Below, piece after piece: positions 23,618-43,708 of a DNA stretch of 64,000 nt. Position 1 is the stretch's first letter. Each line of letters begins with the position of its first letter. Position numbers and translations under genes: made by a program. The notes below the pieces were generated by a model. That model searched no databases. It saw nothing but the letters and a program-made list of their open reading frames with translations, and was not told the DNA's origin. The DNA is from a virus (lineage: Duplodnaviria > Caudoviricetes): IMG/VR virus record IMGVR_UViG_3300035180_001680; one strand, 5' to 3'.

Positions 23618-23723
23618 ACATACACATTTTATAGCAATCTATTTATAAAGTCAACAAAAAGTTTTGGTCTCTATATCCGGTAATCTTGTGAACTACCCAA
23701 TTGTTCAATGGGGGTAGTTCACC

Positions 23724-23828
23724 TTAGATCATATTAATGGAATAAATGATGATCATAGATTAGAGAACTTGAGAACAGTTTGTCCTAAATGTGATTCATT
23801 ATTACCAACTTTTTGTTGTAAAAACTAA
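23724..23828 (+). pseudogene. HNH endonuclease remnant
   Basis: LDHINGINDDHRLENLRTVCPKCDSLLPTFCCKN*; no start codon, and the 5' part is replaced by a hairpin. Confidence 0.75.
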
Positions 23829-23839
23829 AAGTTAAAAAA

Positions 23840-24159
23840 TGGTGCCCCGAGCCAGATTTGAACTGGCACGCTCGAAAGCGAGGGATTTTAAGCGGTTGTG
23901 TCTCGAAGTTTCCTTCAAGCCCGGACTATCTCTTTACCTTCAACATTATTTGGTCAGGTAATGGGCGTTCAAAGCTGGTTATTAAGAGGACTAAACCTCT
24001 CCAGTAGTCTCTACACCTTCAAGTGATGTATCACTTGCTTGGCTCGCGATTGCCATTTTAAAGGCTCTCCCGAATTAACCCATAGTTTACTCAAAGTTTC
24101 CAATTGAGGGGGACTAGCGTCATGCGATCCCTTGTGTCTACCAATTTCACCATCGGGGC
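23840..24159 (-). tRNA. tRNA-Leu(UAA) interrupted by an intron (exons 24127-24159 and 23840-23892)
   Basis: 5' exon GCCCCGATGGTGAAATTGGTAGACACAAGGGAT; 3' exon CTTAAAATCCCT, variable arm, T-arm, CACCA; closely resembles E. coli leuZ. Confidence 0.9.
23893..24126 (-). mobile_element. Group I intron, 234 nt, no ORF
   Basis: Core elements P (AATTCGGGAGA), Q (AATCGCGAGCC), R (GTGTAGAGACTA), S (AAGAGATAGTCC); P3 ATGGG/CCCAT; GAAA-capped P9; terminal G; P1 GGGAT/GTCCC with a U.G pair. Confidence 0.88.
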
Positions 24160-24275
24160 ATTAAATTATAAAAGAACAGTCACACCAAAAACATTTACTT
24201 CTGAGTCATTCTTCTAACTCCTTCTTTACTGGGAGACTATTATATATTAAGTATCCCATAAAGTCAACAAAAATT

Positions 24276-25159: not shown

Positions 25160-26167
25160 TTAACCTCTTCCGTATTTAAAAAGATATTCATTGCTGACAG
25201 CCTTCCAATGTTCTCGTCCATTAACTTGCTTGTATACTTCTCCTTCTCGGAGTTTACCAGTAAGTTTACTCGTTCCATCTGCCATTGACAACACATCTTG
25301 AACAGAAGTTTCAGGTGGAAACACATACTCTTCGTGAATTACAGGGACGTGCTTAAGTCCAAGGTCTTCACACAATTGACGCCGCTGGTTAGGGGAAAGA
25401 AAACATCCCAACTTAATGTCATATATCGCGAACACGTAGAAGTCTTGACCCTTCAACCCATAATGGTTACCCTGTATACCTTCTCCGATAATTTCACCCT
25501 GAATAATGATATCATCCAAGCCCGTTTCAATCAACCGCTGTTCGATGTTATACTTACGAGCTTGAGCCCACAAAGAGTTACCTTCAGTTTCTCTCAAGTT
25601 CAAGTTCCGAGAACATACGATGAACTCACCATCAATTCGACCGACAGACATCGAGCTACCCTCAAGCTTCTCAGTAACCTCATAAGTTAGTTGCTTCAAT
25701 TCTTCCCAGTTACTAGTGAGATTCTGAATTCGTTCTTCATCTGTCTTGGGAAATACAGATGGAAAAGCTCCCTTAACTACACCAGCCAGCTGAGCTGGGA
25801 TTGGAGGTTCGTACTTGACGATGCCAAGGAGGTCGGTGACATCTTCACCCTCATTGAACACCAACATGGATGTGGGGATGGGGAGAACAAGGCCCTGACT
25901 CAATTGCCCCCTCAATCGAACGGTGCGCAGACGTTCCCCAGAGATACCTTCGTATACAAAAGGAGTTTTATCACCTTTAGTCAGGAAAGGGGCAATGTCG
26001 TGTGGGATGAAGCTATCAACTTCACAGTATATTACAAGGTTACCAGGTTCAAATTCACCTTTTTTGACGACGACTTTCCATCCTCCAAGCAACGCAACTT
26101 CAATAGCGTCAGCATCAGGGATAGGTTGAATGTCATCGATTTTTCGAATAGTAGCAAGATGTCGCAT
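25160..26167 (-). CDS. RNA ligase, DRB0094 / Rnl2-like family
   Basis: N-terminal LATIRKI..I.PIPDAD.IE..GW.VVVKKGEF; motif I TEKLEGSS; QGEIIG, EGEV, KAVSNEYL. Confidence 0.92.
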   Translation of the reverse strand: MRHLATIRKIDDIQPIPDADAIEVALLGGWKVVVKKGEFEPGNLVIYCEVDSFIPHDIAPFLTKGDKTPFVYEGISGERLRTVRLRGQLSQGLVLPIPTSMLVFNEGEDVTDLLGIVKYEPPIPAQLAGVVKGAFPSVFPKTDEERIQNLTSNWEELKQLTYEVTEKLEGSSMSVGRIDGEFIVCSRNLNLRETEGNSLWAQARKYNIEQRLIETGLDDIIIQGEIIGEGIQGNHYGLKGQDFYVFAIYDIKLGCFLSPNQRRQLCEDLGLKHVPVIHEEYVFPPETSVQDVLSMADGTSKLTGKLREGEVYKQVNGREHWKAVSNEYLFKYGRG

Positions 26168-29152: not shown

Positions 29153-29537
29153 ATTGAATACTCCGGATAACGTTCATACACTCGTCATCATCCAACACAA
29201 AGCATTCGCTATCCCCTCCGATCAACTCCAAGGGAACATACTTATACTGCTTCCATGTTCTCTTGATGTGTTGTTCAATCTTGAATGCTTCGTATAGTGT
29301 AGTAGCTCTCTCGTACCGGGAGGTAACTGAGTATACTTTTTTGGACTGAAACCTTTTAGTCACAGACCGCTTCGTAATCCCTATCTTCTGAAACCGCTCT
29401 GATCCTTTACTGAACTCAACGAAGTATACCAGCGCGCTGATGTCTTTGAGTTCGGGTTTCATCTTGAACAGGTGTTCGGTGTACACCTCAACAACTTTTT
29501 GTAGTAATATAGCTAAAACTTCTAAGAGGATCACCAT
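29106..29537 (-). CDS. GIY-YIG / T5orf172-like endonuclease (possible free-standing homing endonuclease)
   Basis: LVYFVEF..FQKIGITKRSV.KRF..A..IEQ.I..GGDSECF; antisense insertion just upstream of the RNA ligase. Confidence 0.6.
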   Translation of the reverse strand: MVILLEVLAILLQKVVEVYTEHLFKMKPELKDISALVYFVEFSKGSERFQKIGITKRSVTKRFQSKKVYSVTSRYERATTLYEAFKIEQHIKRTWKQYKYVPLELIGGDSECFVLDDDECMNVIRSIQSTQLVPIPFSGSFRK

Positions 29538-30663
29538 GAACCAATACCAGACTCAGCTATTCACTGAACTGCAAGCGCTCATCGCTAGCAATGAAGCCTT
29601 TTACGCACAGACGTTCGAGTCGAATGGTCACATCTATAAGATATACAACTATCGGTTAGCCTCATATACCGACTTCCTCGCTCCTTCCGCTTTGGAATCA
29701 AGGGGTGTGATGTTTGAGGTTGACGCTTCCGACGACCCAGTTGAACTGAAAGTTCTCCCTCAACCCAAATTCTTTAACGCCTATGAGAATCCATTCACGA
29801 TGGATCTCGACTTCACTGCAGTTGATGCAATCTACGATAAGCTTGACGGCTCGTTGATGTCTACTTATATGGAAGACGGACAGTTGAAGTTGAAATCTAA
29901 AGGTTCAATCTCTTCTGAACAAGCACTTGCTGCGATGGATTGGTTGGATAATCCTGACCAGGCTATGCTGTATCATAACCTCGCGTCAGCCACAGAGAAG
30001 GGATGGACTATCAATTTGGAGTTCATGAGCCCCAACTATAGGATCGTATTGGGTTACATGAACACTCACTGTAAGGTGTTGAACGCTCGTAACCGTGAAG
30101 ATGGCTCGTTTGTTGAATACGACCTTCTCCAATCGACGTTCGGTGCTCATAACGTGGTCAGTCGAGTGATTGTGGATGATACCAAAACCTTCATTGATAA
30201 CATTCCTGGAATGCAGGATGACATTGAAGGCTATGTGGTTTGGTTGTCTGACGGTCGAGTGGTCAAAATTAAATTGACCAAATATTTAAGCCTGCACCAC
30301 GCGAAAGATTCTGTCAACAATCCTCGTCGATTGTTTGAGTGTATTCTTGATGAAGGTGTTGATGATCTTCGTGGAATGTTCTATACTGATGCTGTTGCAA
30401 TGATGATGATTGATCAAATGCAGGTGAAGGTTGATCATATGTTTAACAGCATGGTAAATGAAGTTGAGACGTTCTACGAAATGAACAAACACCTTGACCG
30501 AAAAGACTACGCTGTTAAAGGTCAGGCTGAAGTTTCACCGATGTATTTCTCTCGTGCAATGAATTTGTATCTTGGGAAGAGTCCTGACTACAAACAGTTC
30601 ATGAAGAGTAAGTGGAAAGAATTGGGATTTAAAGATATGAAAATTGAAGAGACTGGAGAATGA
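29536..30663 (+). CDS. rnlA: T4-type RNA ligase 1
   Basis: YNYRLASY.DF..ALESRGVMFE, KFFN, motif I KLDGSL, EGYV, KIK..YL.LH; start at 29536 after GAGGA. Confidence 0.9.
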   Translation: MNQYQTQLFTELQALIASNEAFYAQTFESNGHIYKIYNYRLASYTDFLAPSALESRGVMFEVDASDDPVELKVLPQPKFFNAYENPFTMDLDFTAVDAIYDKLDGSLMSTYMEDGQLKLKSKGSISSEQALAAMDWLDNPDQAMLYHNLASATEKGWTINLEFMSPNYRIVLGYMNTHCKVLNARNREDGSFVEYDLLQSTFGAHNVVSRVIVDDTKTFIDNIPGMQDDIEGYVVWLSDGRVVKIKLTKYLSLHHAKDSVNNPRRLFECILDEGVDDLRGMFYTDAVAMMMIDQMQVKVDHMFNSMVNEVETFYEMNKHLDRKDYAVKGQAEVSPMYFSRAMNLYLGKSPDYKQFMKSKWKELGFKDMKIEETGE

Positions 30664-41885: not shown

Positions 41886-42182
41886 AATAAAAAGATCAAC
41901 AGTTGACTTCTTTAAGTTCTTGGTGTTCGAATTTCAAAACATACTCTATACAAAAAGTCAACTGATTAATTCTGAAACATACTTTATACAAAAAGTCAAC
42001 TTTTATTAATTAAAATAGATGGGGTATTGTGTTTTTGTGTGGGTGTGGTAGAATGGGGGTGTGGTGTGTAGGGGGTGTAAAGTATTGTTTTTAGTGAGAA
42101 AGTTGTGGAGTTTTTTGAAAGTTTGTAGTAGAATGTTTGTGTTGTTGAGAGAGAAGTTAATTTGATTTTTAGGAGAGTGAAA

Positions 42183-42755
42183 ATGTTGAAAATGATTAAT
42201 AATGAAATGAATGTGGGTTTTGATGAATTAGTTAATGTGTTTGTTAGTAAGTTTGAAGAAAAGTTGTATGTAAAGAAAGAGAGTTTGAGTAAGAGTATTA
42301 AAGAAGTAAAGAGTAATGTTGAAAAGTTGAAAAAAGAAGTATTGGGTAAAGTTAATTTGAGTAAGTATGAAATTGTTATTGATGTATTAGGTTTGAAATG
42401 TAAAGTTAATAAAGATAGTATAAGTGTTTATTTTAGTGAAGATAGAAAGAAAAGTAGTTATATTGATTTTGTTGTTTATATGTATGATGTAAATGATAAG
42501 AGTTTGGGGTATTGTGTTAATAGTAAGAGAATTAATGTTGATATAGATGTTGATGATGTTGTTGAATATGAGAGTTATATTAGTGAATTAAATAAGTTGA
42601 ATGAAGAATTAATTGAAGTGGTAAATGAAATAAAGAGTATTAGTAGAAAGGAAAGGAGTATTAGGAGTAAGATTAGTGAAATGAAATTGAAAGAGTGTGG
42701 TTTAGAAGAATTGTTGGGAAATGATGAAATAATGAAATTGATTGAATTGAAATAA
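42183..42755 (+). CDS. C-free gene 1 (190 aa, terminal coiled coils), unknown function
   Basis: AGGAG at 42171 then ATG at 42183; no A, P, T, H or Q residues. Confidence 0.8.
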   Translation: MLKMINNEMNVGFDELVNVFVSKFEEKLYVKKESLSKSIKEVKSNVEKLKKEVLGKVNLSKYEIVIDVLGLKCKVNKDSISVYFSEDRKKSSYIDFVVYMYDVNDKSLGYCVNSKRINVDIDVDDVVEYESYISELNKLNEELIEVVNEIKSISRKERSIRSKISEMKLKECGLEELLGNDEIMKLIELK

Positions 42756-42806
42756 AATAGAATTGTGGTGGTTAGGGAGTTTTTTAATTATATAGAGGAT
42801 TAAAAA

Positions 42807-43388
42807 ATGAGTAATGAAATGGTTTATGTTATTAATGTGAATAATGAATTTGTTTTGGAATGTAAAAAAGTATTGATTGAAGATGTTGTTGATGTGTTTT
42901 ATAGTAGAGAAGAAATGAAAGAAATGGGATGGAGATATAGAGATGTGAGTTTAAAAAAAGGTAGAATTAAAGAGTATTTAAATGGTTTAGTAAAAGAAAT
43001 GAAAGATAGTGGAAAAAAGAGTATTAAATTGAGTAGTTTGTTTGTTGGTGTTTGTAAGAGTTATGGTTTAAAGATTAGTGAATATGTTGAAGGTGTGAGG
43101 AGATTAAATAATAAGTTGTTTTTGTATGAAAAGAAAAAGAATAGTTATAGTAAAAGAGATGTAATTAATTTTGTGGATATGGGAGTAATGTTAATAAGAA
43201 AGAAGTATGGGATTGAATTAGATATAAAGAATGTGAGTTATAGTTATGATGGTTGTGTGAAAGTTGTAAAAGATTTGATTAGTTTATATGAATTGTGTAG
43301 TTATAAAGGAAGTAGGTTTATAGTGGAAAAAGAATGGATTGAAATGATTTATAATAAAGAAGGGGAATTGTTTAAGAAGAAAGAATGA
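42807..43388 (+). CDS. C-free gene 2 (193 aa, basic), unknown function
   Basis: GAGGA site; no A, P, T, H or Q residues. Confidence 0.8.
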   Translation: MSNEMVYVINVNNEFVLECKKVLIEDVVDVFYSREEMKEMGWRYRDVSLKKGRIKEYLNGLVKEMKDSGKKSIKLSSLFVGVCKSYGLKISEYVEGVRRLNNKLFLYEKKKNSYSKRDVINFVDMGVMLIRKKYGIELDIKNVSYSYDGCVKVVKDLISLYELCSYKGSRFIVEKEWIEMIYNKEGELFKKKE

Positions 43389-43400
43389 AATAAAAAGTTG

Positions 43401-43429
43401 TTGTGTTTTTTGTGTGGGTGTGGTAGAAT
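43401..43429 (+). promoter_or_regulatory. C-free promoter (second copy at 42027-42054)
   Basis: TTGTGT-N17-TAGAAT with an extended -10 TG; the motif TTGTGTTTTTGTGTGGGTGTGGTAGAAT is duplicated. Confidence 0.65.
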
Positions 43430-43448
43430 AGTGGTGTTGATAATATGA

Positions 43449-43691
43449 ATGGAAAAAGAAATGAAAGTTGAAATTATTAGTGTTATGTTTGAAGATAATA
43501 TTAGTAATTTTTGTGGTGGAGGTTTTTGTAAAGTTGAATGTAGTGGAGAGAATATTGAAGATTGTGTAGTGAATGATTATTATAAAGGAGATTGTGAATT
43601 TGATTTAGATATAGATTTAAGATATAAGGTAGAAGAAGATGTTTATTATTTGAGAAATAGAGAGAGATTGTTAATTATTAAAATAATTTAA
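43449..43691 (+). CDS. C-free gene 3 (80 aa, acidic, Cys-containing), unknown function
   Basis: Behind the C-free promoter; no A, P, T, H or Q residues. Confidence 0.65.
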   Translation: MEKEMKVEIISVMFEDNISNFCGGGFCKVECSGENIEDCVVNDYYKGDCEFDLDIDLRYKVEEDVYYLRNRERLLIIKII

Positions 43692-43708
43692 AAAGTTGTT
43701 GACTTTTT

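Follow-up and report, generated by a model that had tools for sequence, protein, structure and literature searches.

A group I intron, probably between A31 and C32 of a phage tRNA-Leu(UAA), from a family that seems to mark its 5' splice site without a U.G pair

Where is the 5' splice site of a group I intron that splits a phage tRNA-Leu(UAA) gene, if the cut expected from the standard rules would leave an 8-nt anticodon loop? Decades of work on the Tetrahymena, Azoarcus and Anabaena introns have taken the G.U wobble pair to be the mark of the cleavage site, and few features of group I ribozymes are as conserved or as well studied as this pair. The window analysed here, a 64,000-nucleotide stretch of DNA, is part of an uncultured large phage that encodes a tail-fibre-like protein, two RNA ligases and a nicotinamide phosphoribosyltransferase. 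We hold with good confidence that it carries a working tRNA-Leu(UAA), that the gene is split between A31 and C32 by a 235-nt group I intron of a family without the usual U.G pair, and that splicing would leave a normal 7-nt loop.

The minus strand reads as a tRNA-Leu(UAA) gene in two pieces separated by a group I intron, and the same arrangement is reported by ARAGORN when introns are allowed (tRNA-Leu (taa) i(33,235), 24159..23840), with a 235-nt intron beginning after gene residue 32. Since this residue is A31 in the standard numbering, the intron extends over 24127..23893 (Table 1); its length is 234 nt if U 24127 is taken as exon. A U follows the 5' exon, which ends in ...AAGGGA; the guide GUCCC lies at 24114-24110, and the 3' exon begins with CUUAAAAUCCCU. 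Because the entire loop CUUAAAA lies in the 3' exon, insertion is at 31/32, which bears out the unusual intron site pointed out in the preliminary description. That description had also recognised a complete group I core splitting the tRNA, and had suggested a search with group I covariance models. Rfam model RF00028, which describes the catalytic core P3-P9 and has a gathering score of 50 bits, matches 24183..23902 with 61.5 bits (E 3.5e-13, model positions 1-253), and the helices carry compensatory changes across 31 relatives. The core is thereby confirmed, and the guide, P3-P9, P9.0 and the terminal G had been placed correctly. The P9 hairpin (23919-23902) has a GAAA loop, and the linker is ACACAA. 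When the two exons of the window are joined in silico, they form a perfect cloverleaf with the long variable arm, 7-nt loop, U33 and UAA anticodon of a functional tRNA-Leu. Both ARAGORN with default settings and the Rfam tRNA model missed this gene while detecting the neighbouring tRNA-Thr, Pro, Gly and Met genes, which explains why tRNA finders overlook such split genes.

Table 1 Positions of the tRNA-Leu(UAA) gene, its predicted intron elements and neighbouring genes in the window.
Feature	Position	Strand	Remarks and basis
Whole tRNA-Leu(UAA) gene with intron	23840..24159	-	320 nt; mature form 85 nt, CCA encoded; ARAGORN
5' exon, ending in anticodon-stem strand AGGGA (A31 = 24128)	24128..24159	-	GGGA invariant across the intron family
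Group I intron if cut after A31; first base U 24127, terminal G 23893	23893..24127	-	235 nt; Rfam RF00028; RNAalifold
3' exon: full loop CUUAAAA, then UCCCU, variable arm, T arm, acceptor strand, CCA	23840..23892	-	Sequence
Internal guide AGUCCC	24110..24115	-	UCCC predicted to pair with exon G28-A31 (P1); register from L023
P3, 5' strand (3' strand 23961-23966)	24078..24083	-	RNAalifold mapping
P4-P5-P6 domain	24015..24073	-	Rfam alignment, RNAalifold; many compensatory pairs
P7, 5' strand AGACUA (3' strand UAGUCC, 23923-23928); guanosine-binding helix	24005..24010	-	Invariant in the family; Rfam core
Extra hairpin between P7 and the P3 3' strand	23975..24004	-	30 nt; pairs 169-198 and 173-188 covary; mark of the subfamily
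P8 hairpin	23935..23960	-	RNAalifold mapping
P9.0 (GG 23922-23921 with CC 23895-23894) around the P9 hairpin	23894..23922	-	Covarying P9.0 pairs
HNH endonuclease gene remnant, 36 codons after an in-frame TAG	23718..23828	+	Pfam HNH_3, E 0.0012, below cut-off
RNA ligase gene, PF09414 and PHA02142 OB-fold domain	25160-26167	-	
RNA ligase gene with T4 Rnl1 C-terminal domain	29440-30663	+	

The same split tRNA-Leu gene is present in contigs of three other metagenome runs from sediment and microbial mat (X2, X3 and X4). These contigs do not differ from the window at 24125-24130 or at 23888-23895, and show only two substitutions within the intron, at 23947 and 23955. Recurrence of the same junctions in three further assemblies excludes a sequencing error there, and the base error that the preliminary description wished to see checked near 23890 and 24127 is absent. 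A search of public sequencing runs for the locus matched DNA contigs and returned no RNA run containing it.

Relatives of the intron were collected with three pattern scans, each combining the P7 strand, a gap and the terminal G followed by CUUAAAAUCCC, and with a fourth pattern for the extra hairpin of the subfamily. The resulting family has 52 members, 42 of them distinct, found in IMG/VR phage contigs, metagenomes and seven betaproteobacterial genomes. All share the layout GGGA/x ... (A)GUCCC ... P9.0-G/CUUAAAAUCCC, in which slashes mark the proposed splice sites and x is the base following A31. The 5' exon ends in GGGA, hence in A31, in every member, and the guide (A)GUCCC is present throughout, with L079 alone having A in place of the guide G. 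Among 28 distinct P1 strands, the guide A is kept in 25 and the guide G in 27. C32 and U33 were fixed by the search patterns, so covariation cannot probe their pairing with the guide AG; when IMG/VR was searched for family members with U32 (...G followed by TTTAAAATCC), none was found.

RNAalifold, applied to 31 members, predicts P2, P3, P4-P6, P8 and P9.0 together with the extra hairpin that follows P7 and precedes the 3' strand of P3. Of the 53 predicted pairs, 36 show compensatory changes, including pairs of P3, P4-P6, P8 and P9.0, which argues that the intron is under selection as a folded RNA. For instance, a P3 pair is A-U in the window and G-C in its relatives, the eight closest of which are 82-86% identical to it, and the 27-43 pair of the tRNA also covaries within the family. 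Every invariant core position is kept in the window. The 3' splice site proposed in the preliminary description, after a terminal G preceded by the GG/CC pairs of P9.0 and before CUUAAAA, is upheld, as G 23893 is invariant and the three P9.0 pairs, which covary (AU 20 / GC 8; UA 13 / AU 12 / GC 4), always abut it. An intron ending at C, which would give the loop UUUAAAA, was rejected, since P9.0 abuts an invariant G.

An 8-nt string, AGACACAA, occurs twice in the window (23897-23904 and 24133-24140, minus strand), its copies lying in the linker between P9 and P9.0 and in the 5' exon, where it runs from the 3' strand of the D stem to position 27. L106 repeats UAGACACA at both corresponding places, and other family members have only GACA-like linkers. 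The duplication may be due to chance or to an alternative pairing with the D stem. Alternative splice sites at the two copies were discarded, since they would leave the tRNA without an anticodon stem and the family does not conserve the repeat.

The products expected from the two possible cuts differ. As judged by ARAGORN, joining A31 to C32 turns 29 of 31 distinct members, the window included, into a standard tRNA-Leu(taa). Retention of the extra base results in loops of 6 or 8 nt, and the U-retaining product is read by the same program as an undetermined tRNA with a 2-base anticodon.

The bacterial members allow the product to be considered in a cultured host. Curvibacter microcysteis RS43 has 47 uninterrupted tRNAs, among which those for leucine read CAG (two copies), CAA, UAG and GAG. 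As UAA is missing from this set, the strain has no tRNA-Leu(UAA) other than the split gene; the remaining YTTAAAAYCC sites were examined as candidates for an uninterrupted tRNA-Leu(UAA) in Curvibacter and dismissed, as they are not tRNAs. The split gene lies downstream of two tRNA-Gly(GCC) genes. In a sister species of the same genus, a tRNA-Leu(UAA) gene that also follows two tRNA-Gly(GCC) genes carries a classical intron at 34/35, and its exons (GGGA-CUU/AAAA-UCCC) specify the same arm as those of the gene with the 31/32 intron. Both introns must therefore yield one and the same anticodon arm, GGGA-CUUAAAA-UCCC.

Further observations concern the distribution of the intron in these bacteria. 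One of 121 sampled genomes of the bacterial family containing Curvibacter has the 31/32 intron; the exact pattern of the uninterrupted gene was found in none of the 121, a result that shows merely that their sequences differ. Within Curvibacter, the classical 34/35 intron occurs in one species and the 31/32 intron in two others. The gene follows a run of tRNA-Gly(GCC) genes both in L144 (G134:C109, 383-690) and in L114 and L115 (Curvibacter G006 and G007), and what happened at this apparently single chromosomal site looks like replacement of one intron by the other or independent invasion. An isolated 3' half of tRNA-Leu(UAA), extending from ACUUAAAAUCCC to CCA and lacking a 5' half nearby, is present at about 1500-1555 of L141 (G133:C25) and resembles the duplicate end that integration of an element leaves behind.

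The position of the 5' cut depends on the register of P1. Across the 28 distinct P1 strands, the base following A31 is U in 11, A in 10, G in 6 and C in one; it is U in the window and in all seven bacterial members, and G in the eight closest relatives of the window. This base pairs with the base located 5' of the guide G, forming U-A in the window (U 24127 with guide A 24115) and in many other members, G-C in nine members and A-U in L109. Since the closest relatives have G with C as its partner, the U-A of the window represents a compensatory double change. Among the first four positions, 2.4 pairs are formed in the register with a bulged G vs 1.1 in the contiguous register. The guide G (24114 in the window), the usual partner in the wobble, is mostly left unpaired because the first intron base is variable and pairs with the base 5' of it; in minimum-energy folds of isolated P1 hairpins it is unpaired in 25 of 31 cases, and hence in most relatives of the window intron. 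The window is one of six exceptions, its isolated hairpin folding with a U.G pair. The guide UCCCUC of L023 lies opposite the exon sequence GAGGGA, with which it forms six pairs by covariation, and this fixes the register as A31-U. A shifted register, in which A31 would face C or G, was rejected, because six exon bases pair with the L023 guide only in the A31-U register. By the classical P1/P10 criterion, the guide AGUCCC complements the proposed joint GGGA/CU at every base, in that UCCC pairs with GGGA and AG is complementary to C32-U33. For a normal tRNA, the last exon base would thus be A31, paired with U, and the 5' splice site would not be marked by a U.G wobble.

Under the standard rules, the cut would instead fall after U 24127, at the U.G pair, the terminal G would define the 3' site, and the tRNA would have the 8-nt loop UCUUAAAA or, in a variant of the same reading, a 6-bp stem and a 6-nt loop, with decoding possibly altered. 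This outcome is quite unlikely, even though the U.G pair belongs to the minimum-energy P1 fold of the window and of five other members and U, found in all bacterial members, is the commonest first base. U is not conserved, being replaced in the closest relatives by a G that pairs with C, and a loop position filled by U, A, G or C does not resemble a position of a mature tRNA. The match of the guide AGUCCC to GGGA/CU leaves no space for an additional base. Moreover, Curvibacter would be left with an aberrant tRNA as its sole tRNA-Leu(UAA), in contrast to the 7-nt loop on an identical stem in the sister species, and the U-retaining product is the one from which ARAGORN extracts the 2-base anticodon. 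The U.G pair drawn in the preliminary description can therefore be formed in the window, where it is favoured in energy in the isolated hairpin, but it is less likely to serve as the 5' splice-site mark, as the base is not conserved and the pair is not homologous across relatives. The 8-nt loop deduced from it is correspondingly a less likely outcome, given a U that varies in the family and the 29 of 31 standard tRNAs obtained by A31-C32 joining; of the two outcomes it named, a non-canonical choice of splice site is favoured over a tRNA with an expanded loop.

We lean towards the view, on comparison of the sequences, that the family marks its 5' splice site without a G.U pair, the cut falling after an A-U pair that faces an unpaired guide G, and that this G serves a second time as the partner of the first 3'-exon base. 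The most likely course of splicing predicted for cutting after A31 would be as follows. The guide UCCC would pair with exon bases G28-A31 to form P1, replacing the anticodon stem, whose 3' strand consists of the identical letters. The P1 helix would then run on into the intron past one unpaired guide G, and guanosine would attack the bond after A31, which sits in an A-U Watson-Crick pair facing the unpaired G. Next, the guide AG would pair with C32-U33 of the 3' exon (P10), P9.0 would set G 23893 in the P7 pocket, and ligation of A31 to C32 would release an ordinary tRNA-Leu with the 7-nt loop CUUAAAA. U 24127 would then be the first intron base, and its ability to pair with the guide G would be a peculiarity of the lineage of the window.

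Several points count against such a mechanism. With no more than four base pairs, the proposed P1 has the anticodon stem as a competitor, and the U that follows A31 in the window can form a regular U.G with the guide G, so the ribozyme could cut one base later there. A purine at -1, which is not known to function when paired with U in the guide, should also be poor, as swapping U.G to G-U in the Anabaena intron abolished the reaction (PMC12355055) and, in the survey of Williams 2020, a U(-1)/terminal-G pair occurs in 98.5% of raw bacterial tRNA intron calls (10.1101/2020.01.27.920355).

Next to the tRNA-Leu gene lies a remnant of an HNH endonuclease gene, which lies 12 nt past the 3' end of the tRNA on the opposite strand and covers only the C-terminal half of the HNH_3 profile. 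Upstream HNH frames occupy 23649-23717, and X2-X4 differ by small indels at 23708-23711. Over 27 aa, the remnant shares 56% identity with an intact HNH ORF of 220 aa found about 190 nt downstream of the tRNA-Leu of L023; within 1.8 kb of the family loci, HNH motifs were found only at L023 and in the window. The remnant may be a decayed free-standing homing endonuclease. Stop-codon recoding, considered on account of the TAG in the remnant, was rejected, since long ORFs were not improved by reading TAG as Q or TGA as W, or by read-through of TAA.

Reduction of the adjoining HNH gene to 36 codons fits an intron that is dead, i.e., a decaying copy left in the phage by a mobile intron with a decayed endonuclease gene, in which splicing has been lost. 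The P1 extension of the window, which features a C.U mismatch where relatives have C-G, points the same way, and phage tRNA genes can be dispensable. Loss of splicing is nonetheless improbable, as all invariant core positions are retained, the changes in P3 and in x and its partner that are specific to the window are compensatory, the exons still make their cloverleaf, and four metagenome assemblies have unchanged junctions and no more than two intron substitutions. Very unlikely, finally, are mixed cuts, after A31 and sometimes after U in members of the U type, which would provide both normal and expanded-loop tRNA: both P1 registers are possible in the window, and Pyle and colleagues are said to have found in 1994 that replacing the wobble pair of the Tetrahymena ribozyme lowers the fidelity of cleavage-site choice, but nearly all U-type relatives form more pairs with the guide G bulged.

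With A31/C32 joining as the preferred reading, the intron can be compared with the classical tRNA-Leu(UAA) intron (Leu.3Ug, IC3), which has the same host gene, a core of similar size and no ORF, and whose exons must likewise give the loop CUUAAAA or UUUAAAA. The classical form is carried in the same tRNA by the related phage L013 and by the sister Curvibacter species L144. It is inserted at U34/A35 with a U.G wobble; in contrast, the window intron is not inserted there, and its family occupies A31/C32 with A at -1. The classical P1 (exon ACUU and guide GAGU in L013) is built from loop bases and exists alongside the anticodon stem, whereas the guide of the window family copies the 3' strand of that stem. 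Furthermore, in the IC3-type core P7 and the 3' strand of P3 are not separated by a hairpin, and none is present in the classical introns of L013 and L144, whereas the window family features the covarying 30-nt hairpin at 24004-23975.

This hairpin is also present at 62 phage loci in IMG/VR, mostly in protein genes such as those for ribonucleotide reductase. These loci share with the window family the core GUGUAGAGACUA ... CUUAAUAAC hairpin ... AUAGUCC, but differ in host genes and insertion sites. Hairpin-bearing phage group I introns presumably resemble subgroup IA3. Three IMG/VR loci of the same hairpin subfamily, L061, L066 and L072, apparently carry the intron in tRNA-like or tmRNA-like T-arm sequences and not in anticodon loops.

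According to Williams 2020 (10.1101/2020.01.27.920355), the catalogued bacterial tRNA introns comprise 21 types, all inserted inside the 7-nt loop, and the sole class reported without U at -1 has C, a class with A(-1) not being reported there. The class with C, the Leu.3Cg introns of Proteobacteria, is a sizeable natural class of tRNA group I introns that also lacks U at -1. It occupies the classical 34/35 site and replaces U.G with C-G, so that a pyrimidine still faces the guide G, whereas the window family has a purine, A, paired with U, and its guide G has no fixed partner. The introns of Azoarcus tRNA-Ile (Ile2.5Ug) and Agrobacterium tRNA-Arg (Arg.5Ug), named after the scheme of Williams, are inserted at another site and have U at -1. 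In a literature search that covered the text of Williams 2020, neither a tRNA intron at 31/32 nor a class with A(-1) was found to be described. According to a 2014 review, all phage introns known at the time were in protein genes and none in tRNA (PMC3984707), with which the rarity of phage tRNA introns stated in the preliminary description agrees; public phage and metagenome contigs nevertheless contain dozens of them.

The two RNA ligase genes of the window lie within 6 kb of the tRNA cluster and together suggest a tRNA repair module. Phage L013 (G001:C1:26347-29545), which has a ligase 61% identical to that of the window, carries its classical U34/A35 intron with U.G in tRNA-Leu(UAA) at about 1480-1725 on the minus strand, inside a tRNA cluster, with a mature loop that reads CUUAAAA. 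Related phages thus have two different introns in one tRNA. In the RNA-ligase neighbourhoods of 12 related phage loci, no intron-bearing tRNA was found beside the ligase, the tRNA-Leu of L013 being located elsewhere in the contig. An exact search with the T arm and acceptor strand of the window gave no match in IMG/VR, a collection that lacks the window as searched here, and a near-identity search of 20 kb against named phages returned tRNA fragments only. At 42001-43700, the window is low in GC and shows a GC skew of 0.77.

With this family, the range of tRNA group I introns comes to include phages and a site beyond the catalogued loop positions. If 5' splice sites are indeed marked as proposed, this widespread family would represent a second natural solution to the choice of the 5' splice site in group I introns. 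As the conserved family provides an essential tRNA only when the cut follows an A-U pair, the active site could then be aimed differently than by the wobble pair, which would bear on the mechanism of the ribozyme and on the rules by which intron-based RNA circularisation is designed.
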